Shown here one piece after another: positions 3,290-53,051 of a DNA stretch of 64,000 nucleotides. The DNA comes from Nemertoderma westbladi. Lineage: Eukaryota > Animalia > Xenacoelomorpha. The stretch lies in NCBI GenBank assembly GCA_032718475.1, contig JAUCBJ010008602.1, forward strand, positions 35,976 to 99,975. The letters run 5' to 3'. The notes under the pieces were generated by a model, which did no database searches, was not told where the DNA came from, and worked only from the letters and a program-made list of their open reading frames with translations. The position numbers and the translations under genes are program-made. Positions within the stretch are counted from its first letter, which is position 1. Every line of letters begins with the position of its first letter.

Positions 3290-3297
3290 AGGTTTAT

Positions 3298-6490: not shown

Positions 6491-6494
6491 CTGT

Positions 6495-27163: not shown

Positions 27164-28499
27164 AAACGAATCCTGTTATCTAATAAACACCGCAGTGTAT
27201 CGAGCACTTACGTATGAGACTGAAACCGATAGCGAGCTCCCCCTAACTATTCCGGACCGACAACCATCTCGGAAAGCGCCAACTTCCAACGTAGGAATCC
27301 GGGAATTTCCCGTAGTGCAGTTGAGAGTCCACGGGTTAAAAAAGAGCTATATAGTGAACGCCCTCCTTGACTCCGGCAGCACAGGAACATTCATCGACAA
27401 AGAACTAGCCGAAGACATCTTTGCTGGACAACCCAAGTTCCGAACTAAGTTGAACCTTTCAGGAATTATGCAGGTTTGGAAATCTACAGTAGCTACAGAC
27501 TACTATGTAGGCGCGTTGTCCATCCCCCAGGATGAACTAGGAGAACACAGTATAAGGTCAGTAAAAATGGTGGCGATAAAGAACTTTGCTACCAGCCAAG
27601 TGGAACCTTATAACTGGGATGAAGACGATTTCACCCAGCAGCATGAGATACCTAGATTCAACACCGACTACCCAGGGGTACAGATACTCATCGGCCAAAA
27701 TGCGCATGAGGCGCTTGAGACATTAGAGAAATGGCCTGCTCGACCGCAACCATTGCAAACCTATGCGGGAAGAACAAGAGTAGGTTGGTACTTCACTGGA
27801 CCTTCCTGTAGGACACTCATGGAAAGGCTACCCAAAGATCAGGTCCATCAGATGAGTGAATGGGAAGAAGACATCAGTGAGGGAGAGACAACCACAACTG
27901 AGGGAACACCATACTCCTCAGATAATGACGATATTAACTCTAATGTAGATCAATGGAGACATTGCCTTGGGACGATTAATCCAGCCGACATCGCTTCCAG
28001 AGGAGCAACTCCTCAAGAACTGATAGATACTCCAGACTGGTTAGGTGGACCCGACTTCCTAAGTAAAGAAGATGATGAATGGCCTCCTCATCTCACCACG
28101 GCTGAGATTAGACAAGCCAAGGGAGCGGAGAAAGTCAAACCTAAAACCCGGACGAGTAAATCAAAGTTATTTAAACCCGCGATTGATCTGTCTGTACTAC
28201 ACATTTCAGGGGACAACGCTGTGGGTCTAAACTCCCCCGCCGCAAATAACTCTGTTGTGGAAATCAGAGAAAGAGACTGGAAATCTGGAACACCAGACGT
28301 CTCGCAGGGACTCTCACCTCTCCTGCAGGGAGCGATAAACCACTATAGCTCCTGGAATCGGCTTTGTAAGGCCGTCGTGTATTTGAAGCGATGTTTCTAT
28401 CGTCACTATTCCAGGACGAAGAGGAAACCTGGAATTGTATTCGAAACACAACAACTCAATCGCCCAGTTGGTCGTTTATGTTTACTGGAAAGAGACTGA
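27147..28499 (+). pseudogene. Aspartic protease plus in-frame deleted pol of copy 2
   Basis: ALLDSGSTGTF motif. Junctions DNDDI|NSNV|DQWRHC and YSRTK|RKPGIVFETQQ. Separated from gag by a 1-nt insertion at about 27160. Confidence 0.9.
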
Positions 28500-30309
28500 G
28501 AACTGTCCAGAAACTATGGAAGGCAAGATACTTTTCCCACGACCACCTCCCTAATCCAACAAACATCTAGGGACTCCCCAACATAACAGCGTCTGGAGTG
28601 GGTGTGTGTCTATATTATTTTATATTTGTTTTTATTATTTTATATTTATGTATGTATTATTATGTAATTTTATTATAATCGTTTTCTTTAATTTTATTTA
28701 GTAGAATGTTATTTTAGCGATTATTTAGTAGATTAGTGCAATATATATTAGTGTTTATTACTTACTTACTTATATTATATTATATATTTAGTGGAACGGC
28801 GAGAAATAATTATTTTTCTCTTTCCTTACTGTCCGTATCATATTATAAATGCGTGACTACAGTAAGATGAAATATCCGTACTTATTAAAGTACAATAAAG
28901 CTCCTACTATACTCAAGTATTATTGGTAATTAGAGTATTATTAGGAATGCAAAGTTCAGATCCTCGTGTCTCAGCTAAACCAAGCTCTGGGTAGACCTTG
29001 GAAACGACTTGCCTCTTCTCACTGACATTGCTTCTTGCAATATTGCTCTCATACCGTATATTAAATAATACATATAGTAGCGTGATGTCCCTTTAACAGT
29101 CGCGTACAACGCAAATAAATCTGTTAAACCCTTTGACCATCTGTAATTCTAGTCGATTAAGATATCGTGGCACCCACCAATATACTTGAAAGACAAAATT
29201 CTAGAATCAGTGGTTAACGTCCCCAGACAAGGTCTGGAATAAATCGGTGCCCATCTTAAATATTAACTATTTAATATTTATAAAAATCTATTAAAACAAA
29301 TATAATAGAGTAAATGCCGACAAATAAACTCTGAGGAGTTTGTAAACCAAGAAAATCTAAAATCTATTAAAATTCAGATCCTTTAAAATTCTAGTCGATT
29401 AAGATATCGTAGCACTTACCGATACTCTTAAAAAGACAAATTTCCCAGAACTTAGGATCCTAGTTTCCAGACATGCTCTGGAATAAAATTGTGTCTATTT
29501 AATATTAAATAATAAAATTTACGGGAATAAATTTAAATTCATATCCTCTCATGAATTTGATAAATTGTCATTTTATGCAATTTATAACATTCCCAAAATT
29601 CCCTTAATTAATAGATCATGGGAGCGGAGATTCACCCTATTAAGTGTATTAGTGTGCAAGAATCTCCAATATATAGTCAATAGCCGATAAAATTCATAAA
29701 ATCATGTATAAAGGGAAATATTGACAATTAAAGAATTACTATTAAATAGCATCCCAGATCTGTATGCATGAGAATTACGCTAATTCTACCGCTAGCTTTC
29801 CATAATGTCACCATAGCAGCAACCACTCTAGAATTAGAAGCGAGTTTAAAGAGCAATAGAAAGCTTGCCCCATTGAATAGCATACGGAATAAATAGCACA
29901 CTGATGGTATCCAGGGATACATAATAATAACGTGGCATTCTGGAAGGCATTTGACTAACGGACAAATGGCCCGAATGTGTACAATTTGTGACAGTTGTGT
30001 GGAATTTGTGCGTTTATAGGTGAATGTTACTACTAAAGTGTGTTTACAGTAGCGAGTCGCAGTTGTGAAAGTAGCCCTACCTCCGCAGTAAGAACCTGAA
30101 GTAAATCTAAGCCCTTGGGACGGACAGTGGAGTGGCTCGCACTGGTTGTTGTTGTCGTGGTGTAGCTACTATGTTGGCGATAGACACAGCTGCGACAGTA
30201 CATCAGCGCTGAGGAGCTTGCGCTGTCCGGGGGCATTGAGGGGGAGGCAGCAACGACCGCTAGCCTAAATTATAATTAATTATAATATCGATAAACTCAT
30301 ATAGCAGCT

Positions 30310-31840
30310 ATGACTGAGTTGATAGAAGATGATCTTGGTATCAGGGAGCGATATACCATACCATTGCAAGCATTTGTTGATAGTTTAATACGCGGCGATG
30401 CTAGTCCACCCACTACGGAGGACGATGGCCGTTATATCGAACCGCCAATGTCAAAGGAACAACTCACGCGTGAATTGGACTATAGAAAATTCACCGCTCG
30501 CTATACGCATCGTAATGGTACGTATATGAACTTCTTAACTACTGGCCATCCTATCGATTTACACGATATGGACGATGTGGACACCGAAATGGAAATGATC
30601 CTATTTAAATATCATACCCAGTGGAGTCGGAACAATAAACTGAGAATCGAACACGAAAATTCTATTCGAAACCTACTCGAAAGAGTAGACGTTAAAGAAC
30701 CGGATAAACGCAGTGACTTAACGTATATTTGGAATTCTTGAGAGAGACGTTGTAAAACTGGAGAAAGATCACCAGCGTTTCCCCTACAGGACGTGCGTCT
30801 TTGGTATTATTACGATGAATGCCCTAGACCCAACCAACAAACGGAAAGACAAACATTCGCGGAGAAGTTGCGCTAAACACAGTTTTACTCGCTATATTTA
30901 CGGGAGTTTCGAGCGAAACTTGTTCGATGTATCACCTACGCTCGCTCGACTCAAACGATCCTTAAATAAACCCATGATCAGAGTTCCGGAATACTCAGTC
31001 AGACCTCCTCATTCCCTGGTGAGACCTCAGATTCTTGATCCTAATAGTATCACGGATCCTCCCAAGCTTACTCACTGTTCAAAGATCTAGTGTTACCCGA
31101 ACAATTAGTCGGTGGCACTCCGGTTGCGGGCTCCCTAGATATTCGCCCATCTTACCTAGCCGGATTGGGATGCGGGCGGACACCTAATATCGCCATTCAA
31201 CCGTATAATCGTCCCTGTTTAACCCGATATAATCTGTCACCGAGGTGGAGGAGAGAGTTATACGAAACGCGTTGGATACTATTTGTCAAAAGATCGGAAA
31301 AGGAACCTACGATTGTTCAGAGAAACGTAAATTGCAGCAGCAAGTCCAAGCGGTAAACGAATTAGCTTTATCTCAGTTCGATCGGGAAACCCAGAATCTC
31401 TAAGAAGATATCAAACTCGGACGACTCTACTTTCTGCAAGAGTTTTGGACGAATGCTTTCAACGACAAGCGGAGGAAAATCAGCTCGAGGAGAAGCATAA
31501 ACGCGAGTTGGAATGAATCATCAAACCGAGGAAATTTCTCACTACACACGGTCCACCTACCGCTTTCGTGCAAACGACCCGTCAGGGACCAGTAAGAGCT
31601 GCTGTCTTAAAACGCGCTCTCAAGGTTGTTCGACCTCGTTCTACTGAGGTTGATACCGATCAACTGGGTACCTCGACCGGCGGATACACCGACTGTAACC
31701 CTAAACCTTCTGATGCAATTGTATTGCACCCTTCACCCAGGAGTTATAGCCCTCCTAGTAAAGTGGCTCGCCCCAAATAGAAAAGGACTCTTGCTAGCCT
31801 CAAAAAACTGCGTAAACGCCGTTCGCGTAAGAAGGACTAA
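30310..31840 (+). pseudogene. Accessory ORF-A (30310-30965) and ORF-B (30974-31840) of copy 2, degenerate
   Basis: Homologous to the copy 1 and copy 3 cassettes. This copy keeps the longest ORF-B, including a Q/E-rich coiled-coil-like segment. Confidence 0.7.
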
Positions 31841-31918
31841 CTGTTTAGAGTATTTTTATATTTTAGAAACTGTGATTTTTTATATTTTATAGAATTAAAT
31901 CCCATTTTCTGGGAGCGG

Positions 31919-33114
31919 TGTAAAAGCTTTTGCGGATATAACAAGCCATTTTTCTCTGCAATATACTGTGTAGGTGTTTTAGCGGACATAACAAGCCATT
32001 TTTACCCGCTATGTCTGCATGTGTGCTTTAGCGGACATAACAAGCCATTTTCTCCGCAATTCGCTTAATACTCTAAAAGATGACTCAGATGACGCAATCT
32101 GTCAGCTGATTTACTGCCAATGCGGAACCTGAATCTCTCTTTGTTCTTTGTTCGGCTCAGCCAATCAGAGCGATTTTCGCTTTGTGTTGGACAGTGCCTA
32201 CAGAAACCCACGCAATTCAGTCAGTGTGTATCTTTTCTAAGCCCAGAACACCGGCTTAGGATTCTTCTGTACTTCTGTGGAAGTTTCAGACTTTGACCTA
32301 AACATCAGAAACATCAGATGGCTTTGATTAAAAGAACGTAAAACTATTAACAATTCAACTACTGAATCATTGCTGAATCATACTTCATATCTGAATCACC
32401 AAATCGTGGCACTATGCAACGCGATTCAACTACACATACTGACTGTTCACCGCATTATTTGATTCTGTTATTAATTGGTGTTATGTTGGTATATATTGCT
32501 GATATATTTGGAGAATACCGATGAATAATCATAAAACCCTCAATCTCTTTGATTACTAAAGGGTAGAGGAACAGGTTTACCAGTAGCAACTGCGACTTAC
32601 ATTATAGTGGTTTTGTGTGAATTGAATGCTATTTCATAATCCCTACATGTGTCAGTTGCGATCCTCCTTATATATGATCAAATTCAGTGACGGTCGGCAG
32701 ATCAATGCGCAGTAGTGTGAAGTAGTGTGAAGTCGTGTGAAGTAGTGTGAAGGTTAATAAAGCATCTCCTAAAGAATGCGCTTTTTACGAAACTCAGTAG
32801 CCACCCAGTTGTGATTAGTATAAGTCATAACTCTGTTTTATACTTAAAGCGCCACGTCCTAAAGGAACTGTTAATATTTCCCCGAAAGTAAATATATTGT
32901 CAGAGATTATATATTAACGATCAATCGAATAATACAGTAGGTCTACACTGCAATCACTATCAAAGCATCCGAATCCAGTCTCCCTTAACTCTGGGTGAAT
33001 GGTCGCGCACAGGCTGGCTTCGGCTGATGTAACTTCAGTACATTAAATAATTGATATACAAAAAGACAATTAAAATTGGCAGGTTAAACTGCTAAAGGTC
33101 TAAAAGCGCGAACA
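31919..33114 (+). repeat. 3' LTR of copy 2 (diverged variant)
   Basis: TGTAAAAGC...GCGCGAACA, preceded by GGGAGCGG. Confidence 0.9.
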
Positions 33115-33389: not shown

Positions 33390-33932
33390 CACTAACATTC
33401 TCGCTTTGGGGGTTTTAAAGAGTGTTGATTACATTTCTGATGTCAGTTTTCACGTTTACATAAATCTAGTCTGTCTGTCTGTCGGTCTCTCTGTCAGTCA
33501 GTCTGTCAAAACATAAAAGAGAATTTAAATTAACTAACATTCTCGCTATGGGGGTTTTAAGGGGTGCTGATTTCACTTCTGATGTCAGTTTTCAGGTTTA
33601 CATAAATCTAGTCTGTCTGTTTGTCGGTCTTTCTGTCAGTCAGTCAGTCTGTCAAAACTTAAAAAAGAATACAAACTAACTAACATTCTCGTTATGGGGG
33701 TTTTAATGGGTGCTAATTTTATTTCAGATGTCAGTTTTCACGTTTAAAAAAATCTATAGTCTGTCTGGCTGTCGGTCTTTCTGTCAGTCTGTCTGTGAAA
33801 ACTTAAGAAAGTATACTAACTAACCAACATTCTCGCTATGGGGGTTTTAAGGGTTGCTGATTTCATTTTTGATGTCAGTTTACACGTTTACATAAATCTA
33901 GTCTGTCTGTCTGTCGGTATCTCTGTCAGTCT
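33390..33932 (+). repeat. About 145-bp tandem repeat x4 with (CTGT)n microsatellite
   Basis: Unit starts CTAACATTCTCGCTATGGGGGTTTTAAG. It resembles the internal repeats of Helentron-associated elements (inference). Confidence 0.85.
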
Positions 33933-35382: not shown

Positions 35383-37590
35383 TCAGATATACATAATAAT
35401 CTCAACAGTTTTCTCTAATTTCGCCTTTTCGTTCTTCAAGTCATTGATTCTGTTTAATATGGCATCATCAGGTTTGAATAGAAGTGCGATATCTTCACTT
35501 TTCATGCTATCCCGTACATCAGATAGCAATTCGTTCTTATCACAAATATATTCCTTCGTCTTTTGGATGAGGCAGTACATAATATACTTGCGTCCAAGAT
35601 CATTAAAAGTAGTCGCCGATATCTTCATGTAAGCCATAACGAAATCCTCAACAAATGTAACTTGGTCATCTATCTCGACAGGAATTGCTAAAGCTTTGCC
35701 AGGTCTATCATTAGTACATAAGGACATTTGAAATTTCCTCATGAAGCCATGGGCTAGCCCAACTTCTTCCGTGGCTACACTACTAGGACCAGTAATGCAA
35801 GCTGCAACTGCTTCATAATTATCCATTTTTAAGCTCCTGACATCCTCAGAATTCATATAATCTGGTGTCTCTGAATTTACATCAATTTCTTTCTTCTTTT
35901 TCTCTCCAGCAACATAACACTGGCCAGTACTACCATCTGCAATGCTTTCATTTTCTTGCACAGTTAAGCCACTGGTATTCTCAGCATTGATGTCACCGTG
36001 TGTTTCTAGACCTCTTACACTGCATTCTTCAGGATTAGCCAAATCAGCTCTGTATATCGTTTTACCATCGTTACAATCTACATAGGCATCATCACTCAAA
36101 TAACCATATTCATGGCTATCGGCTATTTCCTTGTCATATTTATTTGCTTCAGAAAAAATTCTTTGTGTATCAGAACCTTCATTCTGTATTGAGGATACCC
36201 CTTCAATGTAATTTAAATATTCTTTGAAATGTGGGTGTTTTGTGTTGATAAAATGTTTCTGAGCTTCTATCATTTGCACAATAGCATTTTCAGTAACATT
36301 TTTGTTCTCTAAGACATGCGAAATAAGAAGAGGTTGAAGTTTTTTCATTAATCTTGGATATTTTCCAAGGTATATCTCAGCTGTGTTATCTAATTCCATT
36401 TGTAAGATACTTGATATCCTGCCAATGAGATCCTTGAATGGTCTCTTAAACCTCTCTGTCAGTTGCTTCACTGCTTTTCTAATTGGAATATTATCAAGTA
36501 ACACGCTGTAGTTTACACCTGTGGAATTGATGATGGTTAATTTTATCTCATTGCGAAATGCATTGCGATCAGTGGGACGGGACTCATGCATCACTTGTGC
36601 AACTCCAATGTCCAGCTTCTCCTTGATTTTATGACCCCCCAGTATTCCCTTATGACATGACTCTGCTTCATTTCCATATAACATCATTTTTACCTCATCT
36701 TCAAATTTTTTTATTAGTTGATTCAGGAGTCTTTCACTTAGCCTTTCATTCATGTTGGTCTCATACCCCAAATCCTTAAGTTGGGTTTGAATTTTTTCAA
36801 TACCATCATTTAAGGATGTCATAATTCCTGGTAGCTTGTCTTTAAGTATCTTTCCTAGTTCTTTGCACAATATTTTGATAAGGTATGTGCTACCACAAAT
36901 GCTGCGAATGCAACGAAATTGAGTGTTCTCCTCGAACCATTTACATTCTTCTTCCAGACCTTCTCTTGGAGTCAGACCGGCATCAAGCTGTTCCTGTGTC
37001 CTATTTTTGACCGCAATGTATCCTTTTTTCAGTTTCAAAATGTCATTATTGTTCTGAAGAATATCAATAAGATTTTTAAGCTCTGTTTCCCCATTTCTCG
37101 TATCTGGCTTTGTTATAACTCCAATTGTCCTTTTTCCTTCTTTGTCCACCTGACGGGCTATCCTAATGGCTTTGGATGTCTGAATGTCCATTGATGCTGA
37201 AGCCGCAGCTAGTATTAATGTGTTGGGTTTACATATGTGTTGCATTACCAACTCTTCAATGGCGATGGAGATATCACGGGGTACCTCAAGAAATCCAGGA
37301 AGATCAACCAGCTCTAAGTCAGGTACATCGGCTGAGAAAACTTTTAAAACAATTGGAACATTACTGACCATGTTGTTGTTGGCAGTTCTTTGTTTTGTTC
37401 TTATGGAAATCTCATTCATTACTTCACGCCAATCCGGATTTTCAAATCGTTTATCAGATGTTTCCCATCTGTCTGCACGAAACTCTGCTACATCATTACC
37501 CCCAGTGGGCTTATGAACTAGTGACAGCACAAGTGGACACCTGGTTACCATGCCATGTCCTCGAGGCAAAAAGTCCCTCCTTACAATTGC
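35383..37590 (-). CDS. Dynamin-superfamily GTPase (Mx/Drp-like), large terminal exon; the G1 P-loop exon is upstream and not found
   Basis: Acceptor TTTTAG|GCA at 37591/37590 gives AIVRRDFLPRGHGMVTRCPL (G2). Then DLPG (G3), TKPD (G4), LKKGYIAVKNR, stalk FINTKHPHF and a C-terminal GED-like helix. The exon is 735 codons plus stop, with no internal stop. Confidence 0.92.
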   Translation of the reverse strand, partial: AIVRRDFLPRGHGMVTRCPLVLSLVHKPTGGNDVAEFRADRWETSDKRFENPDWREVMNEISIRTKQRTANNNMVSNVPIVLKVFSADVPDLELVDLPGFLEVPRDISIAIEELVMQHICKPNTLILAAASASMDIQTSKAIRIARQVDKEGKRTIGVITKPDTRNGETELKNLIDILQNNNDILKLKKGYIAVKNRTQEQLDAGLTPREGLEEECKWFEENTQFRCIRSICGSTYLIKILCKELGKILKDKLPGIMTSLNDGIEKIQTQLKDLGYETNMNERLSERLLNQLIKKFEDEVKMMLYGNEAESCHKGILGGHKIKEKLDIGVAQVMHESRPTDRNAFRNEIKLTIINSTGVNYSVLLDNIPIRKAVKQLTERFKRPFKDLIGRISSILQMELDNTAEIYLGKYPRLMKKLQPLLISHVLENKNVTENAIVQMIEAQKHFINTKHPHFKEYLNYIEGVSSIQNEGSDTQRIFSEANKYDKEIADSHEYGYLSDDAYVDCNDGKTIYRADLANPEECSVRGLETHGDINAENTSGLTVQENESIADGSTGQCYVAGEKKKKEIDVNSETPDYMNSEDVRSLKMDNYEAVAACITGPSSVATEEVGLAHGFMRKFQMSLCTNDRPGKALAIPVEIDDQVTFVEDFVMAYMKISATTFNDLGRKYIMYCLIQKTKEYICDKNELLSDVRDSMKSEDIALLFKPDDAILNRINDLKNEKAKLEKTVEIIMYI

Positions 37591-37919
37591 CTAAAACATA
37601 GAATGTAAACAAACATTAAGAGTTGATATATTTTACAGGGAACATTAAGAGTTTCTTAACTAATTATTTTAAAGTGAACAGAAAGAGTGAATTGACTGTT
37701 TTACAGTGAACATTAAGAGTCGTGATAACTATTTCACTGGGCCCAAGTGAAGTATACTATACATTCTGCTGTTATGCTGTTATATTTTACTTTGTTGTTT
37801 AACCCCATGTGAAGAATACCAGGTTTTCACTAAAACTCTGGTTACATAAAAGGACTAAATCTATCCAAAATAATGTAATAAACGAATAAGTACAGTACGA
37901 GTAGTACAGTAGACCCCCT

Positions 37920-39066
37920 TGTAAAAGCTTTTGCGGATGTAACAAGCTATTTTTCTCCGCAATATACCGAGTAGGTATTTTAGCGGACATAACAAGCGAT
38001 TTTGCCCGCTATGTCTGCATGTGTGCTTTAGCGGACATAAAAAGCCATTTTTCTCCACAATAAGCTCAAATACTCTAAACATCGGAACTCAGATGACGAC
38101 ATCTATCAGCTGTGTCCACGTGTAACTTTTTCTTTGTTCTTTGTTCGTTCTTTGTTCGGTCGACCAATCAGAGCGGTTTTCACTCTGTGTTGGACATTGT
38201 ATACAGAAACTCACGCAATTCAGTCAGTGTGTATTTTCCCTAAGCCTAGAACACCGGCTTTGGAATTATTCTGTTTTTCAGACTTTAGCCAAACATTAGT
38301 AGGCTTTGATCATAGAAACGTATAACTGTTATCAATGCAATCAACGCAATTCATATTGTTACTAATCATATTGTCACCTACAAACACCGCATTATTTTAC
38401 TGCTATTTACTGTCGGTTATTAATTATATCAGTTGATGGAATATTATTATATTTGGATAATATCGATAAATAATCATAAAACCCCAATCTTCTTGATATA
38501 CTGAAAGTAAGAGACAGGTTACATATAGCAATTGCGACTTACATTATATTGGTTTTGGAGTGAATCTAATGCTATTTCATAGGCACTACATGTGTCGGTT
38601 GCTGTTCTCTTTATATGTGACTAAAATTAGTGAAGGTCGGCAGATCGGTGTGCAGCATTGTGCGGTAGTGTGCATGATTTTGACAGATAACAAAGCATCT
38701 CCTAAAAATGCGCTTTATACGTGAATCAATAGCCATCCCGTTGTGTTTAGTGTGAGTCATAACTCTGTTTACATACTTAGAGCGCCACATCCTAAAGGAA
38801 CTGTTAATATTTCCCGAAAGTGAATAATATTGGTCAGAGATTATATATTAACGATCAATCGCATAATACAGTAGGCCTACATCACAATAAGGTCAGAGCT
38901 TCCGAATCCAGTCTCCCGGGTATATCCAGCGGGTGAATGGTCGCGCATAGGCTGGCTTCGGCTAATGTAGTGTATCAAATACTCGTCATAGGCTAAAGTC
39001 GATTTATAACCTAGAAGACACCTAAATTTGGCAGGTTAAACTGCTAAAGGTCTGAAAGCGCGAACA
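37920..39066 (+). repeat. 5' LTR of copy 3
   Basis: About 9 visible substitutions versus 53052-54198. It begins with three about 49-bp GCGGACATAACAAGC repeats, and has CCAAT at about 38164. Confidence 0.97.
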
Positions 39067-39078
39067 ATAACAGTTATA
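39067..39078 (+). promoter_or_regulatory. Putative self-priming primer-binding site
   Basis: ATAACAGTTATA directly abuts the 5' LTR, lacks TGG, and is the exact reverse complement of LTR 38321-38332 (TATAACTGTTAT). Confidence 0.6.
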
Positions 39079-39971
39079 ACTTCTGTATTGCAACGTAGGC
39101 AATAAAGCTGAAGTACCAGTCGACCGGTAACCAATAGGCCTAACTACCTAACCACCCGAACCGGTACTTACAGCAGTACAGGTACAGCAGTATTATTCGA
39201 TTTTGATAATTATATACCGGTAGGTCTTTATATTTAATCAGGGAGGGCCCGCCCTGGTTTTTTATTGGGATTTTACTTATTTCTGTCAGTTTTATTTATC
39301 TGTAAGTTGATATTGAGCAGAAGGTGTGTAAGCCTGCTCAGATTGTACAGATAATTTGTAGGCTAGACTGTTGTCTGACTGTTGTTAAGTCTGAAGAGAT
39401 TGCAGTGTGTGTAGAGTGTATGTCCAATAAAGTACTAGTTAGGAAAGTGGGTGGCATCCAGTGCTGTAAGGTAAATCCCCCCGTAAGAATAAGTCGTACT
39501 ACTCGGTTAGAACGCATACTAACTAACCATTTCGGAGTCTACGTATACTGTAGTTTATTTAGGCTTGATAGTAGTCTGCCAGCATTTGGTTTGTATTTTG
39601 TTTGTGTAGTCTGTACGGGTAGCGTAATATTTATTATTCAGAGTTTATGCGATTATTCGCAACATTCACAAACCACAAGTTTATTCCTACATTAATTGTG
39701 CTTGTTATACATACCGTTATAGTTAAATTAACCTCGGTACTACATCAGGGCTGTTTGGCGTAGGTAAAGACTGGAGATTATATGCTTTGGTCACTCCTGC
39801 AGATACTGTGGTTCTTTTAGCTGTACAAGTATTTTAACTGCTGATTATTTGTTGTATAAGTACTTGTACCTAATTTAGGGTTTAGTGTACAGTGCTTTCC
39901 GAAGGTAATTAGTGTGTAGGCAGTATATTTGTGTTGTAAAGTGGTTAATAGGCACGTTAGCTATAGTAGGC

Positions 39972-41640
39972 TGCGGTAATTAACTTCTAGGTAGGAACAC
40001 TCTGTGTACATAACGTAGTACTTATAGCGCTACGGCTATAAGTCGTCAGACGGTGGTATTTTTCCTATCTAGACAACGCAATATATTTACTACTGCTTTA
40101 TTATTTTCAAATACCGTAGTATCCTGTCAATTTGTAATAACCAGATATTCTAACCCCTTGTTAGGCTGGTTTGTAGATTCCCTGTAAAATTAACCCTAAA
40201 AATTCGTACGTGTAATTTTTGTGTTTATTTAGAGATTGTAATCTCACCCCAAATTGTACGTAATTTGTAGTATTAAGTAACTTAGGCAAATTAGAATTAT
40301 TTGTTTTAGTGTCCAACAAGTAGCACTTCACTGAGAGCGTACAGCTTCTGGGCAGTGACTCCTTCCCAGAAATAATAACATTTATTTCAAATATTGAAAA
40401 AAACCCATTATACGGGTATATATATTATAAATCAACTCAAACCGATTTATAAAATAGTAGGCCTGTCTTACAACAATTAGGTCTTAATGTCAGTTGGACT
40501 ACTGCTTAAATAACGGTAATCAAGTAAAGTAAAGTAACCAAGTAACCCCTAATATTCAGAAATTCAATTATTCTAAAATAATTGACATACCGGTATTTAC
40601 AATAGGCTTATTATATTTATTCTATAAATTTAGGCTGAAATTATACCAGTATTCTGTAATTAATTCTAGTCCATAATTATACTTATATATACTATAAGTG
40701 TCAGCTGTATACCGGTATTCACGATAGGCCTATTATATATTTATATATATTTGTGCTGAAATTATATACCGGTATTCTGTGACAAACCTAGTCTGTAATA
40801 ATTATGCGGTAATTAACTTCTAGGTAAGGACACTCCGGGTACATAACGTAGTACTTATAGAGCTGTAGAGCTAAAGACTATAAGTCGTCAGACGGTGGTA
40901 TTTTCTTATCTAGACAATGCAATTTATTTACTACTGCTTAATTATTTTCAAATACCGTAGTATCATGTCCGTTTGTAATAACCAGAAATTCTAACTCCTT
41001 GTTAGGCTGGTTTGTAGATTTCCTATAAAATTACCCTAAAATTTGTACGTGTAACTTTTGGTGTTTATTTAGAAATTGTAATCCTATACAGTAATTGTAT
41101 GTAATTTGTAGTAATAAGTAACTTAGTAAAGTAGAATTATTTGTTTTAGTGTCTAACAGGTAGCACTCCACTGAGAGCATTCAGCTTCTGTGTAGTGACT
41201 CCTTACCATAAATAATAACATTTATTTCAAATATTGTCAAAAACCCATTATATAGGTATATATATATTATAAATCAACTCAAACTGATTTATAAAATAGT
41301 AGGACCGTTATACATTAATTAGGTCCTAATATCAGTTGGACTACTGCTTAATAACAGTAATAAAGTAAAGGAAAGTAATCCTAAATTTCAGAAATTTAGA
41401 CATCGTAAAATAATTGACATTACCGGTATTTCCAATAGGCTTATTATACTTATTTCTATAAATTTAAGCTGAAATTATATACCGGTATTCTGTAATTAAT
41501 CCTAGTCCGTAATAATACTTATATATACTATAAGTGTAAGCTGTATACCGGTATTCACGATAGGCTTATTATATATTGCTATATATTTGCGCTGAAATTA
41601 CATACCGGTATTCTGTGACAAACCTAGTCTGTAATAATAC
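39972..41640 (+). repeat. About 830-bp tandem duplication in the 2.7-kb 5' leader
   Basis: TGCGGTAATTAACTTCTAGG starts both units (about 39972 and 40805). Copy 2 has a single unit. Confidence 0.85.
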
Positions 41641-41810
41641 TTATATATATACTATAAGTGTATACCGGTATTCTAATATATTATATATATATATCATGTT
41701 ACACTGAGTAACAGTATCGGTAATTAATTACGAGGCTAACAGTTGATACTGAATTACTAGACTTGCTTTAACTGTAATATAGCAGTAGGCATTCAACTGT
41801 ACAAACAAAC

Positions 41811-44800
41811 ATGTCTGACACAAAGCAAAACCTGTCAGACAGTCTCCTAGATACAACCATCTGTGACCCAGACAGGAGTGTGGAACGTGTGAGACCGAAG
41901 TTCAACTCACCTCCTACTGTAAGAAAGATCATCCCTCCAGTAGTAGTATCAGACCCTAGGCTAGTCCAACACCGTAGGTCTATCATAGGCACTCGAGCTC
42001 AGGTCAAGCGGGACCAAGAAGCAGCGGAACAGCAGCAACACTCGAGCCGAGAACTTATTTCTCAGCGGCCCGACAGCTCCAGTAGTGCGGATACTGTAGA
42101 GCTGACACCCGAGCGCGGAGCAAAGATGGCAGATGCGGTTTATCCGGATCCCCTTCTCATCCTTCCTGCAGCCGTACTCACTAGGGTATTGATTGCGGTG
42201 GAGGAACACCAGATTGATTGGGCAAGAAGTAAGCGATCGACCAAGGATAGTTATGAGGGATACACAAGGGAAGAACTGAAGTCTATTGTCGAGTCGCAAT
42301 GGAACTTCCCTGGACACGGACTCCCGTTTGACTTATCGGAAGCTGCCTGGGAAGACATACACAGGATGGGAGTGACAAAAGACACCAGTGATCCAGCTGT
42401 ATGGAAGAGGTCGGCAGCAGGATATGTACAGGGATTCTTCAGCTCTTTGGAGCGATTAGAAGAACAACTGTTTCGACAACCCCAAGGACCTCAAGAGCAG
42501 GGAGAGCTGCTTTATCAAGTTAGAGAAAGAATTCTAAGAATCAGACTAATCTTATCGGCCTTTGAGGAGGCTTCGAAAAGAAGACAAGACACGTCGTTAC
42601 AAGTTGCTGTAAAGACTTGGTTCCAGCGGGTGAGTCTCCTGGTTCAAGGAACGGCCCAGTGGAAAGCTCAGCTGGCTGAGCGCTCAACCCATGGAGAATC
42701 AACAGACGCTACCTTTTCCCAAGTGGAAAGTGAAGCGACAGCTGAGAAACCGCATAAGAGGGATGCTATTGACATCTATCTGTCAGACTATCAACGATTT
42801 CTAGGTGACGAAGAGTTGAGGAGACGGCTGTCTGGACTTCGCCCTAATAGTGAAGGAGCCAAGCTTGTGTTGGACGCAATCGATGCGGAAATGTTAGCTG
42901 CGAACCAAGCTAAATTTGATGAAAGACTCCGCATCGCTAAGGTCCAAGAAGAACAAGTCAAGAAAAAACGTATAGAAGACAGAAAGACAACAGCAGCAGC
43001 AGCGGCAGTGGCAGCGGCAGAAACGGAAAGAAAAGCGGCAGTGGCAGTGGCCGAAGCGGAAAGAAAATCGGCAGTGGCAGCGGCAGTGGCAGCGGCCGAA
43101 GCGGAAAGAAAAGCGGCAGTGGCAGCGGCCGAAGCGGAAAGAAAAGCGGCAGTGGCAGCGGCAGAGGCAGTGGCAGAAGCAGAACGAAGAGCATCTGAAG
43201 AGACCACCCAACTAGAGTTGGAAAATATTCAAGAGAATCAAGACTACATAAATAAACAGTTAACAGCTAGTCAAATGCAGATGATGAATCGATCTACTCC
43301 CAAAAGACAGGGATATACATCATCTGATGAAGGCGATACCACCGATCCTGAAGGCGGAGGAAATAGATCTCGTCTAAGCAGACGTAGAAGAATGTCCCAC
43401 CGTCAGAAATTGCCTGATTTGCCCCCAGCTGTTAGAAGGCAACTAACTAACACAGACTTAGGTAGTACAGAACCCACAGACCAAATAATTAAAATAGAAA
43501 GACTCCCTACTATAGTAGATGAGCCTGAAATAATTAGGCCTGTTCTCGAAGCCACCCCTTCGGTGATAGAGACACCTGAACTCCCAGAACCTACCTCTAA
43601 ATTCCCTTTGCACAGTACTAAACTACCTGTGCCCAGTAGGACTGTTCACGAGTCCGAACCCGTCCTGGACGCCGAGCAAGATATCAAGAATTTATCGCCC
43701 GTCGTCTCTTGCTCGCCCGCTACTACGTTGGCGACTCCTGCTTCGGCAGTTGAGTGGGTAGCAGATGGACGACGGGAGATGGGTCTCCTGCTCGGGCAGT
43801 TGAGGGAACACCGCAAGTGCTCCTCTCAGCACGTCCAGGAGATGGAAGGAACTGTTCAGCAGTTCAAGGGCACAGTAAGGGAAAGTAGGTTAGAGTTGCA
43901 AGAGGTGCAGCAGAGTATCGCATTAGAACGCGACAAATTAGTAAATACCCAAAGAGGTATACCATCAACCCCGGTAACAATGTGTCAACCTGTTAGGTCT
44001 GAAGTATTTCATGCGCAAGGTGTGGAGCCTACACGCATCTATACTGCTAGTGAAGTAGAAACTCCTATAGTAAACCCTATTAAGGGTAATTATAAACCTG
44101 TTGACAATGATATTCCATATAGACCTGATAATAATCCGAGAAATTTATATACCGATAACTCGATATTAAATAATACGATGGCCCAAGAAAGTTTTACGCT
44201 TCAAATGGCTAGAACCGAAGCCCGTCAAGCGGTAAAGGTGGGAGAGATCGTCAAGTTCAATGGAGATGAGATGAAATGGTTACCTTTTAATGAATATTAC
44301 AAAGATAACATACAGAACTCTGTGCTATCTAACGGAGAGAAACTTAGATTCCTCATCGAGTGCTTGGAAGGATCTCCCAAGTTAATGGCGTTAAAGTTTA
44401 TTGGACATCCAGATGGATTAAGACAAGTTTGGGATACCCTAAACATCAGGTATGGTAATAGGAATAACATAGCTAGGTATTTGTATGCAAAATTGGTAGC
44501 ACCCCGAAAGTTCATTAGCAGCGGGATTATAGAGTTTTCCGATGAGATTCAGGAGATCTGTAGACAATTAGATTGGCTAGGTAAGTCTCATGAATATCAG
44601 AGTTATATGGTTATTGGAGCCGTGGCCTCTACTTTACCGAAGGGTGGAGTAGGTACACGCTGGGATAAGAAAGTGTTATATATGATGGAACAACAACGAC
44701 GAGACCCTACCATGGCTGATCTCATGTCATTCTTAGACGGAGAAGTAAAATTACAGCTCCTCAAGCAGTCCAGAGAGAAGACACCGGAAAATAAGGTAAG

Positions 44801-47800
44801 TGAGAAACCTGTTTCTAGGAGAAAGGTAACACCAGTGTGTTATACCGACGACGGCGAAAGCCAGGCTTCTCAAGAAGAGGACAGTGGGAAAGACACTGAA
44901 AGATCTTATTATGTCAACAAAACGCCTAAAGACGTAAGTAAATTCAAGTCTCGAACCAATGATAGGAGAGAACAGGTAAGAAAAACTCCTCCTACGTCTC
45001 CTAAAAGAATTCATGTAAGAAAGCCCGAAGAAAGAACGAGTGTGCACAACGTTACTCAAAATAAGGTAAGTAACATCAAACCGAAATGTGCGCTGTGTGA
45101 CGGGCTCCACCGTTTGAATGTGTGTGATGAATTCCTAAAGAAATCATTAAAGGATAGACGGGAAGTCATGTGGGATAAGCGGTTGTGTTATAATTGCCTC
45201 AGACAAGGACACCAACGGCGAACCTGTTACTCCGACGCAAGGTGTGCGAAGTGCGGTGCAAAACATCATCTCTTGTTGCACACTGAATTCGAACGAAACA
45301 GCCCGAGTCAGGTAAGTGATTCCGAACTACATGTCCAATTCAGTGATGTGAACGACACTGACCAAAGTTCTGAGATGGAAGGATTCTATACGGACGAATT
45401 CTCCGATGAAAACGAATCCTGTTACCTGATAAATACCGCAGTGTATCGAGCACTTATGTATGAAAAGGACACCGATAGCAAGCTCCCCCTAACTACTTCT
45501 GACCGACAACCATCTTGGAAAGCACCAACTTCCAATGTAGGAATCCGAGAATTTCCCGTAGTGCAGTTGAGGGTCCACGGACCTGAAAGGAGTTATATAG
45601 TGAACGCCCTCCTTGACTCCGGTAGCACAGGAACATTCATCGACAAAGAACTAGCCGAAGACATCTTTGCTGGACAACCCAAGTTCCGAACTAAGTTAAA
45701 CATGTCAGGAATTATGCAGGTTTGGAAATCTACAGTAATAGCAGATTATTATGTAGGTGCGTTGTCCACCCCCCAGGATGAACTAGGAGAACACAGTATA
45801 AGGTCAGTAAAAATGGTGGCGATAAAGAACTTCGCTACCAGCCAAGTAGAACCTTATAACTGGGATGAGGACGATTTCACCCAGCAGCTTAAGATACCTA
45901 GATTCAACACAGACTACCCTGGAGTGCAAATACTCATCGGCCAAAATGCGCATGAGGCGCTTGAGACATTGGAGAAACGGCCTGCTCAACCGCAACCACT
46001 ACAAGCCTATGCGGGAAGAACTAGAGTAGGTTGGTACTTTACTGGCCCTTCCCGTAGAACTCTCATGGAAAGGTTACCAAAAGAACGGGTATACCAAGTA
46101 AGTGAATGGGAAGCGGAGAGCAGTGAGGTAGACGACCCAACTGAGGGAACACCATACTCCTCAGATAATGACGATATCCACCAACTCTTCGACGAGGAGA
46201 ATACCATCGACCTCCTTACGGAAAACGAGACTTGGCAAAACCAAGTGAACCTATGTCAACTCATTCGTCCATCAGGACAAGTCGACTATAACGACGAACT
46301 GAATGACGTAATAGAGCGCTATAACGCGAAGACTCGGGATGAACACGCCGTACGATTCTTTACTCAAGAGGCTGTAGAGCCCAATTCCTACGATAAGGCC
46401 CTATCGGTAGAAGAAGAAAGAGCCAAGCAGATCCAGGAGACAACTACACGTTTTCTTAAAGATCAAGGTAGATATGAAATCGGTCTACCATTCAGAAAGC
46501 GAGAACCAAAATTCATAAACAACCGACCCTTGGCGGAGAAAAGAATTGCACAACTACATCGACGCCTTACGGCAAATGCTTCAGCTAAAGAAATGTACCA
46601 GACTCAGTTGAATAAATTTATTAATAAGGGATATGCGGAGCGAGTACCGGAAGAAACACCCATAACTGAGAGAACGTACTATCTAACACATCATTACGTT
46701 CCCAAACCCGGTAAACCCAATGAAGTTCGGGTAGTATTTGATGGCTCCGCCCTCTACATGGGCCAATCCCTTAATTCCGAGTTGTTACCAGGACCCAACT
46801 TACTCCAATCCTTGTTGGGAATACTCTTAAGATTACGACAATATTCAATCGCTTTCGCCTCCGATATAGAAGGCATGTTCTTACAAGTCAAGGCGCTGGA
46901 TAGGGATCGAGACAGCCTACGATTTCTGTGGTGGCCTGAAGGAGACCTCAACCAGAAACCGGTGGAGTATTGGATGACCATCCAGGCTTTTGGGATCATC
47001 TCAAGCCCTTCAAACGCCTGCTCAGTGGTGCGCACCACTGCTGATGACAACCGGGACGCCTTCTCTAAAGAGGTGATCGACAACATCAAACGGGATATAT
47101 ACATGGACGACAATTTAAAGTCCCTTCCATCGGTGGAAGAAGCCATTGATGTCGCCAAAGGAACGGTAGAGTGCTTAAAAAGAGGTGGATTTCGATTAAC
47201 TAAATTCACCAGCAACTCCCGTGAGTTTCTGGAATCGATCCCGGTAGAAGATCGAGGAGCGAAAGATCTAGACCTAATCAAAGACGATCTTCCAGAAACC
47301 AAAACACTTGGTTTGAAATGGGACACAGAGAGAGATATCCTGTTTTTCCAGCTCAAACAGCGAGATAATCCAGTTCGGACTAAACGGATTTGTTTAAGTA
47401 TCCTGAGCACTTATTTCGATCCATTGGGATTTATTAGCCCAGTTATATTGATTGCTCGGAGTTTAGTACAACAAATCTGGCTTGAAAACCACTCATGGGA
47501 CGATCCACTTAAGGGAGAACTATTAAAGAAGTGGATGAAATGGGAGGATTCTCTACCAGCCATCGAGAACTGTATAATTTCCCGTTCATATTTTGGTCAT
47601 GTTCTCCCTACGTATTCCTATCAACTCCATGTGTTTGGAGACGCCAGCGATATGGGAATAGGTATAGTAGCCTACCTGAGAGTTGAAACTCCGGATGGAA
47701 TCAAAGTCGCCTTGGTAACCTCTAAGGCATTGATAAACAACAAGTTGAAAGTTCCTCGAGCGGAGTTAAAAGCGGCTCTATACGCTACAGCCATTGGCCG

Positions 47801-48278
47801 GAATGTAACAGAACAGATCGAATATCCACTGGAGAAAACTGTCTATTGGACCGATGCTTTACTCGTGTTGGAGTATATAACCAATGAAGTCTGTCAGTTC
47901 AGCGTCTTCGTTACCAACCGAGTAGCCATTATACTTAGTCGCACGAAGATGGATCAATGGAGACATTGCCCCGGAACGATTAATCCAGCAGACATCGCCT
48001 CCAGGGGAGCAACTCCACAAGAACTGATAGATACTCCAGACTGGTTAGGTGGACCCGACTTCCTAAGCAAAGAAGAAGATGAATGGCCTCCTCATCTTAC
48101 TACGGCGGAGATTAGACAGGCCAAGGGAGCGGAGAAAGTCAAACCTAAAACTCGGGCGAGTAAATCGAAGTTATTTAAACCCGTGGTAGATCTGTCTGTA
48201 CTACACACTTCCGGAGACGACTCTTTGGATCCGAAACCCACAGCCACAAATAAGTATGTTGTGGAAGTCAGAGAGTAA
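41811..48278 (+). CDS. Gag-Pol polyprotein (Gag, 3 zinc knuckles, protease, RT, RNase H)
   Basis: 2155-aa ORF containing ALLDSGS, VRVVFDGS, LLPGPNLL, ASDIEGMF, YMDD, LHVFGDAS, PRAELKAA, YWTDA and NPADIASRG. Confidence 0.96.
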   Translation: MSDTKQNLSDSLLDTTICDPDRSVERVRPKFNSPPTVRKIIPPVVVSDPRLVQHRRSIIGTRAQVKRDQEAAEQQQHSSRELISQRPDSSSSADTVELTPERGAKMADAVYPDPLLILPAAVLTRVLIAVEEHQIDWARSKRSTKDSYEGYTREELKSIVESQWNFPGHGLPFDLSEAAWEDIHRMGVTKDTSDPAVWKRSAAGYVQGFFSSLERLEEQLFRQPQGPQEQGELLYQVRERILRIRLILSAFEEASKRRQDTSLQVAVKTWFQRVSLLVQGTAQWKAQLAERSTHGESTDATFSQVESEATAEKPHKRDAIDIYLSDYQRFLGDEELRRRLSGLRPNSEGAKLVLDAIDAEMLAANQAKFDERLRIAKVQEEQVKKKRIEDRKTTAAAAAVAAAETERKAAVAVAEAERKSAVAAAVAAAEAERKAAVAAAEAERKAAVAAAEAVAEAERRASEETTQLELENIQENQDYINKQLTASQMQMMNRSTPKRQGYTSSDEGDTTDPEGGGNRSRLSRRRRMSHRQKLPDLPPAVRRQLTNTDLGSTEPTDQIIKIERLPTIVDEPEIIRPVLEATPSVIETPELPEPTSKFPLHSTKLPVPSRTVHESEPVLDAEQDIKNLSPVVSCSPATTLATPASAVEWVADGRREMGLLLGQLREHRKCSSQHVQEMEGTVQQFKGTVRESRLELQEVQQSIALERDKLVNTQRGIPSTPVTMCQPVRSEVFHAQGVEPTRIYTASEVETPIVNPIKGNYKPVDNDIPYRPDNNPRNLYTDNSILNNTMAQESFTLQMARTEARQAVKVGEIVKFNGDEMKWLPFNEYYKDNIQNSVLSNGEKLRFLIECLEGSPKLMALKFIGHPDGLRQVWDTLNIRYGNRNNIARYLYAKLVAPRKFISSGIIEFSDEIQEICRQLDWLGKSHEYQSYMVIGAVASTLPKGGVGTRWDKKVLYMMEQQRRDPTMADLMSFLDGEVKLQLLKQSREKTPENKVSEKPVSRRKVTPVCYTDDGESQASQEEDSGKDTERSYYVNKTPKDVSKFKSRTNDRREQVRKTPPTSPKRIHVRKPEERTSVHNVTQNKVSNIKPKCALCDGLHRLNVCDEFLKKSLKDRREVMWDKRLCYNCLRQGHQRRTCYSDARCAKCGAKHHLLLHTEFERNSPSQVSDSELHVQFSDVNDTDQSSEMEGFYTDEFSDENESCYLINTAVYRALMYEKDTDSKLPLTTSDRQPSWKAPTSNVGIREFPVVQLRVHGPERSYIVNALLDSGSTGTFIDKELAEDIFAGQPKFRTKLNMSGIMQVWKSTVIADYYVGALSTPQDELGEHSIRSVKMVAIKNFATSQVEPYNWDEDDFTQQLKIPRFNTDYPGVQILIGQNAHEALETLEKRPAQPQPLQAYAGRTRVGWYFTGPSRRTLMERLPKERVYQVSEWEAESSEVDDPTEGTPYSSDNDDIHQLFDEENTIDLLTENETWQNQVNLCQLIRPSGQVDYNDELNDVIERYNAKTRDEHAVRFFTQEAVEPNSYDKALSVEEERAKQIQETTTRFLKDQGRYEIGLPFRKREPKFINNRPLAEKRIAQLHRRLTANASAKEMYQTQLNKFINKGYAERVPEETPITERTYYLTHHYVPKPGKPNEVRVVFDGSALYMGQSLNSELLPGPNLLQSLLGILLRLRQYSIAFASDIEGMFLQVKALDRDRDSLRFLWWPEGDLNQKPVEYWMTIQAFGIISSPSNACSVVRTTADDNRDAFSKEVIDNIKRDIYMDDNLKSLPSVEEAIDVAKGTVECLKRGGFRLTKFTSNSREFLESIPVEDRGAKDLDLIKDDLPETKTLGLKWDTERDILFFQLKQRDNPVRTKRICLSILSTYFDPLGFISPVILIARSLVQQIWLENHSWDDPLKGELLKKWMKWEDSLPAIENCIISRSYFGHVLPTYSYQLHVFGDASDMGIGIVAYLRVETPDGIKVALVTSKALINNKLKVPRAELKAALYATAIGRNVTEQIEYPLEKTVYWTDALLVLEYITNEVCQFSVFVTNRVAIILSRTKMDQWRHCPGTINPADIASRGATPQELIDTPDWLGGPDFLSKEEDEWPPHLTTAEIRQAKGAEKVKPKTRASKSKLFKPVVDLSVLHTSGDDSLDPKPTATNKYVVEVRE

Positions 48279-48280
48279 GT

Positions 48281-49975
48281 GGAATACCAGACGTCTCGCA
48301 AGGACTCTCACCTCTCCTGCAGAGAGCGATATATCACTACAGTTCCTGGAATCGGCTCTGTAAGGCTGTTACATATTTAAAGCGATGTTTTCATCATCAC
48401 TACTCCAGGACGAAGACCAATGGTGATACCGCTCCACTGACATCGGTGCAGGTCCATGTTGTTAAAGATCTTCCCAAATATAAGATATCCGACAGGTTTC
48501 TGAAGGAGAAGATCAGTTATCAGGAGCATGAAGAAACCAATAAGCAGATGCTGAGACTCCTGCAATGCTATGAGGATTCCGATAAGTATTTCCTGTTGTT
48601 GAGAAATCCACAGATGCGCTTAAGGGATCGTTTCTCTAGCACAATGATAGATGGGTTGATACGTGTTGGAGGAAGATTAACTAATGCTCCATTATCCTTT
48701 GACACTAAGTTTCCCATACTCATTAGAAATCTTGAAATACAAATCAAGATGATTGTAGATGTTCACAGCAAACTTTATCATGCTGGTAGAGAACGAGTTC
48801 TTAGCGAAATTCGAACTCGCTATTATTTTTATAAACCCCGTAGAGCTCTGAACCAAGTTCTTAGGAACTGCATACCCTGTAGGAAAGCATTCAGTAGGCC
48901 TTTAACACAGCGAGAGGCACAATTACCTAGGGAACGAGTAAGCTTCTATGAACCACCCTTTACTAATACCGGTGTAGATTTATTTGGCCCTATTGAAGTA
49001 TATCGTGCTAGGACTATAGTCAAGAGATGGTGTGTCATCTTTGTTTGTATGACTTGTAGAGCTATCCATCTCGATATGGTGAACAATTTATCTACCAACA
49101 GCTTCCTATTGAGCTTACGTCGACAGATCGCTCGCTTTGGAACTAGTAACACGATGAGATCTGATAAGGGAACGAACTTCATTGGTGCCAACAATGAAAT
49201 CAAGGCTTACGTCAAAGATTGGAACCAAAGACAGGTGGACGATCAGCTAAGGGTAACAGCGTCTAGCTGGACCTTCAACGCCGCCGACGCCCCTTGGTGG
49301 GGAGGAAGTTGGGAGAGATTAATCAGGAGCGTGAAGACCGCATTTCACTTTATAGTGCCGTGCCGCGCGTATCTCACCGACGAACTTTTGCGGACGTTAA
49401 TGGAGGAAATCGCTGCCTATCTCAACGAGAGACCGCTTATGCCAGTCTCATCGAGTCCCAATTCCCTGGAAGCGCTAACACCCGCGCACTTCCTACTGAA
49501 GAAACCTGTAGCCATGCTCCCACGATCGGAAATCACAGACAGAGACGAATACTGCCGGCAAACTTGGCAACTTATGCAGTTGTCATCCCGTCGTTTCGCT
49601 GACCATTTCGAAAAACATTATCTGCATACGCTACAACTTCGAACTAAGTGGTTTGCGCAGCAAGAAAACGTCAGTGCTGGAGACATGGTCCTTATTGTGG
49701 ATTCAGATCTTCCACGTAAGCGGTGGCAGACAGGTCGTATCATCGAGACTCACATCTCGGATGATGGTTTGGTGCGATCGGTAGAACTCGTCATCTTGCG
49801 ACGTAACTTTAAGAAACCGGGAATTGTCTTCGAGACGCAGCAGCTCAATCGCCCAGTTGGTCGTTTATGTTTACTGGAAAGAGACAGAGAACTCTCCGGA
49901 AACTATGGAAGGCAAGATACTCTTCCCACGACCACCTCCCTAATCCAACAAACATCTAGGGACTCCCCAACGTAA
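48281..49975 (+). CDS. Integrase, out of frame with pol after a 10-nt deletion near 48275
   Basis: HSKLYHAG...CIPC zinc finger, GVDLFGP, SDKGTNF and GGSWERL motifs. Copy 2 reads through this junction in frame. Confidence 0.92.
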   Translation, partial: GIPDVSQGLSPLLQRAIYHYSSWNRLCKAVTYLKRCFHHHYSRTKTNGDTAPLTSVQVHVVKDLPKYKISDRFLKEKISYQEHEETNKQMLRLLQCYEDSDKYFLLLRNPQMRLRDRFSSTMIDGLIRVGGRLTNAPLSFDTKFPILIRNLEIQIKMIVDVHSKLYHAGRERVLSEIRTRYYFYKPRRALNQVLRNCIPCRKAFSRPLTQREAQLPRERVSFYEPPFTNTGVDLFGPIEVYRARTIVKRWCVIFVCMTCRAIHLDMVNNLSTNSFLLSLRRQIARFGTSNTMRSDKGTNFIGANNEIKAYVKDWNQRQVDDQLRVTASSWTFNAADAPWWGGSWERLIRSVKTAFHFIVPCRAYLTDELLRTLMEEIAAYLNERPLMPVSSSPNSLEALTPAHFLLKKPVAMLPRSEITDRDEYCRQTWQLMQLSSRRFADHFEKHYLHTLQLRTKWFAQQENVSAGDMVLIVDSDLPRKRWQTGRIIETHISDDGLVRSVELVILRRNFKKPGIVFETQQLNRPVGRLCLLERDRELSGNYGRQDTLPTTTSLIQQTSRDSPT

Positions 49976-50530
49976 CAGCGTCTGGAGTGGGTGTATGACT
50001 ATACTATTTTATATTTGTTTCATTATTTTATATTTATGTATGTATTATTATGTAATTTTATTATAATCGTTTTCTTTAATTTTATTTAGTAGAATGTTAT
50101 TTTAGCGATTATTTAGTAGATTAGTGCCATATATATATTCGCGTTTATTACTTAATTACTTATATATTATATATTTAGTGCGACGGCGAGAAATAATTCT
50201 TTTTCTCTTTCCTTACTGTTCGTATTACATTATAAATACGTGACTACAGTAAGATGAAATATCCGTACTTATTAAAGTACAATAAAGCTCCTACTATATT
50301 CAAGTATTATTGGTAAGTAGAGTATTAGGAATGCAAAATTCAGATCCTCGTGTCTCGGCTAAACCAAGCTCTGGGTAGACCTTGGAAACGACTTGCCTCT
50401 TCTCACTGACATTGCTTCTTGCGATATTGCTCTCATACCGTATATTAAATAATACATATAGTAGCGTGATGTCCCTTTAATAGTAGCGTAAAACGCAAAA
50501 TAAATCTGTTAAACCTTTTGACCATCTGTA

Positions 50531-52973: not shown

Positions 52974-53051
52974 CTGTTTAGAGTATTTTTATATTTTAGA
53001 AACTGTGATTTTGTATATTTTATAGACTCAAATCCCATTTTCTGGGAGCGG

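Follow-up and report, generated by a model that had tools for sequence, protein, structure and literature searches.

A BEL/Pao-type LTR retrotransposon in the genome of Nemertoderma westbladi carries, directly after its 5' LTR, a 12-nt sequence that is the exact reverse complement of a segment of that LTR, and the best reading of this arrangement is that the element probably self-primes in the manner of Tf1, taking its primer from its own RNA and not from a host tRNA. The mechanism would be a known one, likely at work here in a superfamily described as tRNA-primed. To our knowledge, self-priming has been shown only for fission-yeast Ty3/gypsy elements; for some Gypsy and Copia lineages it is a prediction. 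The element lies in a window of 64,000 nucleotides of contig JAUCBJ010008602.1, in whose numbering all coordinates are given.

Self-comparison of the window and boundary checks delimit the element at 37920-54198 (16,279 nt, forward strand throughout), between two copies of the target-site duplication CCCCT (37915-37919 and 54199-54203). The 5' LTR (37920-39066, forward strand, 1147 nt, TG...CA) is 99.2% identical to the 3' LTR (53052-54198), with 9 differences over 1147 nt; these near-identical LTRs, together with the target duplication, indicate a young, recent insertion. Two further family members are present in the window: copy 1 (1619-7408, reverse strand), internally deleted, with a 3' LTR at about 1619-2808 and a truncated 5' LTR at 6495-7408, and copy 2 (23603-33113, forward strand), which has lost its 5' LTR and reverse transcriptase (RT) and whose 3' LTR begins at 31919. 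Both lack the 5' LTR end and the post-LTR primer site, so that covariation cannot be judged from the window alone.

Within the element, a 2.7-kb leader (39079-41810), which contains a roughly 830-nt internal duplication, precedes a gag-pol frame (41811-48278) encoding DUF1759, three Cys-His boxes, a protease (LDSGS), an RT (YMDD) and the Pao RNase H region (PF05380) behind a long N-terminal extension, followed by a second frame (48254-49975) for the integrase part, with an H2C2 zinc finger, a catalytic core and DUF5641. Pfam matches comprise DUF1759, Peptidase_A17, the integrase zinc finger and DUF5641, and motifs give the domain order gag zinc knuckles, protease, RT, RNase H, integrase. The pol of this copy is interrupted in the RNase H-integrase linker near 48275; a programmed frame break was considered and rejected, the break being specific to this copy while copy 2 is open there. 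The stretch of about 810 residues upstream of the recognisable gag domain (41811-44240, forward strand) contains Ala/Glu-rich repeats, is unusually long for a BEL/Pao gag, is conserved in copy 2 and has no convincing Pfam match. The 3.1-kb 3' region (49976-53051), which holds only two short frames with no Pfam match and has a short purine-rich tract just ahead of the 3' LTR, is conserved at about 91-94% across all three window copies and may harbour an RNA element or the remains of an accessory gene.

Elsewhere in the window, a 735-codon uninterrupted frame of the dynamin family (35383-37590, reverse strand; Dynamin_N, Dynamin_M, GED) is about 30% identical to its best matches. It begins past the usual position of the P-loop, and none is seen in the 330 nt that separate the frame from the element, which means that a 5' exon lies elsewhere or that the gene is truncated. 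A satellite in which a 31-nt unit is repeated 74 times occupies 11381-13678, further arrays lie at 8832-9481, 33391-33931 and 57817-58424, and RVT_1 fragments of other retroelements are found at 709-1602 (reverse strand) and 62415-62867 (forward strand).

The best homologues of the RT-RNase H region are BEL/Pao proteins with 39-44% identity, from sea urchins, corals, bivalves and a tunicate, the named ones being mostly from marine invertebrates. Besides these nearest homologues, the BEL/Pao domains PF05380, PF03564 and PF18701 are present, as are TG...CA LTRs within 0.2-1.2 kb, a target-site duplication and the order protease-RT-RNase H-integrase. According to the ICTV profile (PMC8742986), the Belpaoviridae have genomes of 4.2-10 kb and are primed by host tRNA-Arg or tRNA-Gly at an 18-nt site (the first-pass annotation, too, notes that BEL/Pao elements are generally described as tRNA-primed); the present element has no such site and is 16,279 nt long. 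The tract before its 3' LTR is short and G-rich with one pyrimidine, compared with the polypurine tract of about 10 nt of the family description. Membership of the Tf1/sushi group, with its Ty3/gypsy chromovirus RT and integrase, does not fit, as the domains are those of BEL/Pao and Pfam gave no chromodomain match. Judged by its predicted proteins, the element is filed as BEL/Pao-type and not as a typical semotivirus.

The same annotation had drawn attention to the bases that follow the 5' LTR, and its description holds throughout: no TGG, and hence no tRNA-type site, occurs within the first 20 nt; positions 39067-39078 are the exact 12-nt reverse complement of 38321-38332 (LTR nt 402-413) and of the second copy at 53453-53464 in the 3' LTR; and, with the LTR ending at 39066, the match begins at offset 0, so that the duplex ends at the LTR boundary. 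We therefore treat 39067-39078 as a candidate non-tRNA primer-binding site and 38321-38332, on the same strand, as the predicted self-primer. The arrangement falls within the published definition of a self-priming site, which PMC6317226 gives as 10 nt or more of complementarity to the LTR, beginning 0-5 nt beyond the LTR end. A match of at least 12 nt within 0-3 nt of the LTR end arose in 15 of 20,000 dinucleotide-shuffled versions of the LTR (p 0.00075), and a 12-nt-or-better match was found at 10 of 13,900 internal positions of the element. Ten of the 12 bases are A or T, and the core 11-mer is an odd-length palindrome (shuffle p 0.03), whereby the two sites also form a direct repeat with one mismatch. 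The LTR segment equivalent to 38321-38332 keeps 10/12 bases in copy 1 and 9/12 in copy 2.

Several other candidates were set aside. A one-mismatch look-alike of the 12-mer at 56676 lies in an unrelated repeat, a duplex of -16.9 kcal/mol near 52860 depends on G-U pairing and lacks any exact complement, and the best splice-junction complement of this element's primer site is only 5 nt. No tRNA gene was found in the 64-kb window, and an Rfam search over 37800-42000 gave no match.

The additional AGAA/TTCT pairing suggested earlier is also predicted: 38312-38317 pairs over 6 bp with 39081-39086 in both the duplex fold and the whole-leader fold (duplex energy -16.0 versus -11.4 kcal/mol). This extension and the transcription start proposed alongside it, at or just before 38321, are mutually exclusive, because the extension can form only in RNA that begins upstream of 38312. 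In RNA beginning at 38322, the site duplex is present in both the minimum-free-energy and the centroid folds, while over eight choices of RNA ends the pairing probability of the two sites varies from about 0.1 to 1.0; the stability of the leader is like that of shuffles (z 0.29). A candidate upstream start is suggested by a CCAAT box (38164) and an initiator-like TCAGTC (38220) within 38164-38225 on the forward strand, and TTCAGT is retained in all three LTR lineages of the window. The pyrimidine-purine (T-A) step at 38321/38322 is a candidate Tf1-like start, and copy 1 has CA there; neither a CA step nor a TATA box occurs at the expected place in the element itself. A hairpin predicted in U5 beside the primer site (39027-39048, forward strand) is kept in all three LTR lineages, with a G-U pair replaced by G-C in copy 1. 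Downstream of the primer, the LTR also contains a splice-donor-like GTAAGA (38507-38512), preceded by G in the 3' LTR and absent from copies 1 and 2.

Variation across the family was read from contigs of public sequencing runs. Of seven such runs, none is on record as RNA and five contain part of the element; the best of these may derive from the sample behind this assembly. The family is highly abundant, with 11,262 contigs aligned to the element in run X1. In contigs of three studies, the LTR is alignable up to about 38333 and then becomes highly variable, so that a hypervariable tract (38333-38400, forward strand) begins at the predicted cut site. Within the region 38268-38362, summed contig depth in X1 falls from 77,287 at 38328-38331 to 445 at 38336-38339, and across the same edge it falls from 64,039 to 467 in X3 and from 290 to 0 in X5; beyond the edge, the contig ends are loose and unlike one another. 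The conserved block starts near 38276 and is thus wider than the 12-mer. In the window, identity past the edge drops from 10/12 to 3/12 in copy 1, which has a pentamer repeat at the position of the tract, and only from 9/12 to 8/12 in copy 2. Template ends are error-prone at strand transfer, and we infer that the edge at about 38333 marks such an end; it fits a cut site, and a start site too.

The primer site itself varies within the family. Among the matches listed, position 39074 differs from the present copy in 68,436 of 96,840 in X1, 91,539 of 141,633 in X2 and 89,888 of 112,082 in X3, reading A in 65-80% of summed contig depth, and X1 also differs at 39079 (43,081/45,521) and 39085 (20,879/28,084), again among the matches listed. 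Variation at these three positions counts for self-priming, given that a fixed tRNA primer would tend to correct it. The partner of 39074 inside the duplex, 38325, is A in all three window LTR lineages, and most copies would be mismatched at 39074 if the LTR majority at 38325 does not change too. In the predicted extension, the change at 39085 would form a Watson-Crick pair with the base of copies 1 and 2, at a position where the 37920-54198 copy has U-G, these being unphased comparisons. The covariation of site and LTR that had been proposed as a check is seen across distant BEL/Pao families; within the N. westbladi family, A at 39074 is common and may count against a perfect duplex. In run X4, guessed to be RNA, two joints inside the LTR were considered as splicing and rejected, not being GT-AG.

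Distant relatives were collected by alignment of 47 proteins, giving 105 loci (78 metagenome loci and 27 contigs). The 27 contigs (L079-L105) encode BEL/Pao pol, several with full LTR pairs, in prokaryote genome assemblies, and are animal host DNA filed under those assemblies. A DNA pattern of the LTR end had no match in metagenome or viral contigs, and protein scans of viral contigs found nothing. We inspected 22 of the 105 loci for LTR ends and scored 18, dropping L012, L024, L032 and L056 as unclear; the LTR starts of L003, L016 and L017 are approximate, and the further TGG loci L097, L098 and L100 were seen and left out of scoring. TGG sites of tRNA type occur in 2 of the 18 loci, L017 and L072, both with a self-complement of only 4 nt, and the L072 site matches the tRNA-Met site given in PMC5445492.

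Among the 16 non-TGG loci, 14, representing about 11 families with different letters, have a 10-15-nt site complementary to their own LTR. In 12 of the 16 (L003, L004, L016, L020, L027, L034, L049, L060, L067, L085, L088 and L090), the complement of 10-15 nt runs across a junction of the form GT(A/G)AG...(C/T)AG inside the LTR: removal of a predicted intron of about 67-450 nt would join exons whose junction complements the primer site. L018 and L026 have a contiguous complement of 10-11 nt, and in L082 and L093 (2/16) the own-LTR complement is shorter than 10 nt. The offset window was widened from 0-3 nt, which gives 12/16, to the published 0-5 nt, which gives 14/16, after L020 and L026 had been inspected. 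When each site was compared with every other LTR as a control, 6 of 342 cross-pairs reached at least 10 nt, 4 of these 6 within the same family, leaving 2 of about 330 unrelated pairs. A scan of 8 loci with unset LTR ends, run without this control and uncounted, gave junction-type matches in L008, L052 and L053/L055, none in L010 and unclear matches in the rest. The self-complementary signature is thus widespread, as read from predicted sites, in marine BEL/Pao relatives, mostly in splice-junction form, and these relatives point to primers that may be built by splicing.

Post hoc comparison of the paired sites revealed further regularities. In 12 of 12 families, including the N. westbladi element, the site starts with purine-T within its first 3 nt, which would give the primers a common 3' end. 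In 9 of 12 families, versus 1.5 expected, the 5' edge of the duplex carries a CA step, and TATA-like boxes lie 26-31 nt upstream in 2 of 14 loci (L003 and L088); both post hoc observations are as expected were the primer the 5' end of the RNA. Palindromic arms are in excess over the 12 families (p 0.0018, likewise post hoc). Primer and LTR end are separated by 44-216 nt in the relatives versus 734 nt in the N. westbladi element.

Phylogenies of these loci disagree. FastTree, with 119 rows, grouped the element with all self-complementary loci and with no TGG locus, in a set of 101 rows (support 99), whereas IQ-TREE, with 25 rows, placed it on a long branch outside and left TGG and self-complementary loci unseparated (16% of bootstrap trees); both trees hold unnamed loci and no named BEL/Pao reference. 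Because of this disagreement, carry-over from the relatives rests on about 40% protein identity and on geometry, not on a firm clade. The first-pass annotation had read the element as possibly a self-priming lineage, of which the BEL/Pao identity, the missing tRNA site and the Tf1-like geometry stand, while the signature is not limited to one lineage.

In the self-priming model, transcription would start at or upstream of 38322, either at 38322 itself, yielding an 11-nt primer, or further upstream (TCAGTC at 38220, CCAAT at 38164), yielding a longer capped primer in which the extension could form. The 5' part of the RNA would fold back to pair with 39067-39078, and RNase H of the element would cleave it after about 38332. 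Extension from the released 3' OH would run directly into U5 and yield a minus-strand strong-stop DNA about 734 nt long, terminating at the cut. Template-end errors in strand transfer would generate the hypervariable tract starting at the cut, and site and primer would stay matched because the primer is copied during plus-strand synthesis. Most relatives would assemble the same primer by splicing an intron from the 5' LTR transcript, the N. westbladi element being the contiguous, intron-less form. Self-priming is favoured because of the exact offset-0 match, the conservation edge at the 3' end of the duplex and the own-LTR complements in 14/16 relatives; the 39074 variant, the 734-nt distance, the variable pairing probability, the shuffle-like stability of the leader, the lack of a CA step or TATA box at the expected place, the short complements of L082 and L093 and the IQ-TREE result count against it. 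We lean, with less assurance, towards a broader proposal in which a large marine BEL/Pao lineage dropped tRNA priming for a primer cut at a conserved A-pyrimidine end and mostly spliced, with the present element as an intron-less member whose R-U5 spans 734 nt and whose hypervariable tract is the footprint of the cut.

These data also bear on other explanations. The complementarity may be structural, circularising or dimerising the genome through pairing with the 3' LTR copy (53453-53464) or with a second RNA, with a start near 38333, the conserved block as core promoter, variation from +1 onwards and another primer altogether. The edge at about 38333 suits a start site no less than a cut site, palindromic arms like those of this odd-palindromic motif are in excess over the 12 families (the post hoc test above), and fungal GalEa Copia elements have a palindromic non-tRNA hairpin site at the same position (PMC5445492). 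We nevertheless consider this explanation unlikely, as the duplex sits exactly at the primer-binding position with no other primer site in view, and in 12 relatives the complement exists solely across the predicted splice junction. For such an intron to be inherited it must persist in the 3' LTR part of the RNA, from which it would follow that the junction forms in the 5' leader.

The primer could instead be a small RNA of the host, such as a tRNA fragment or a tRNA half, with the LTR match secondary, as a regulatory decoy or a captured primer copy. This would agree with the tRNA priming ascribed to the Belpaoviridae (PMC8742986) and with the half-tRNA priming without TGG known in Copia lineages (PMC6317226); yet the site differs in nearly every family, tracking each element's own LTR, and is variable inside the N. 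westbladi family too, which makes a host primer quite improbable. Lower still, we put the chance that the match is fortuitous or an AT-rich palindromic motif that was duplicated and picked from many windows. The A/T content of 10/12, the palindromic core, the look-alike at 56676 in an unrelated repeat and the difference of most family contigs at 39074, among the matches listed, speak for such an origin; against them stand the shuffle p of 0.00075, the zero offset, the conservation edge at the duplex end and the same geometry repeated in 14/16 relatives.

If self-priming is confirmed, all three LTR superfamilies would contain self-priming lineages, the family description of the Belpaoviridae would need revision, and silencing by tRNA fragments that target the primer site would no longer reach such elements, a trade-off described for mammalian elements in PMC7472051. 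If the broader proposal is true, replication of the spliced-primer families would come under the control of the host spliceosome. For the young, high-copy N. westbladi family the predictions are exact: a capped start should lie at 38322 or upstream of it, and an uncapped end at about 38333. Self-priming of BEL/Pao elements was not found in the literature searched, whose scope was that outside subscription journals, Repbase Reports and GyDB. The main texts of the BEL/Pao surveys PMC554778 and PMC3118150 never mention primer binding, PBS, tRNA or priming, PBS or primer does not occur in PMC8556966 and PMC12440569, and the passages covered of PMC3601003, PMC8220671, PMC7472051, PMC3286476, PMC2864245, PMC5445492 and PMC5443660 do not mention a self-priming BEL/Pao element.

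Compared with the Belpaoviridae as defined by the ICTV (PMC8742986), the N. westbladi element shares TG...CA LTRs of 0.2-1.2 kb, the order of pol and BEL/Pao-specific Pfam domains, and differs in having no tRNA site and in its 16.3 kb. The closest mechanistic parallel is with Tf1 and Tf2 of Schizosaccharomyces pombe, which self-prime (PMC7175516 and PMC5341516), RNase H cutting the Tf1 RNA between bases 11 and 12 (PMC7175516). With these elements and the Tf1/sushi group, it shares a site beside the 5' LTR complementary to 11-12 nt of its own LTR, the lack of a tRNA site and a predicted U5 hairpin adjoining the primer site. Unlike Tf1/Tf2, it has BEL/Pao enzymes, no chromodomain match, 734 nt from primer to site and a possible upstream extension of the duplex, its relatives appear to splice the primer, and it is known from sequence alone. 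Self-priming has also been predicted for the Gypsy Tcn1 and Copia TAR (Houba, Osr-1) lineages by the same computational criterion (PMC6317226); the N. westbladi element differs in belonging to a third LTR superfamily and in having an animal host. Finally, the GalEa Copia hairpin likewise places a palindromic non-tRNA sequence at the primer-site position, but the portion of PMC5445492 that describes it reports no LTR complement, whereas the N. westbladi element has an exact one.
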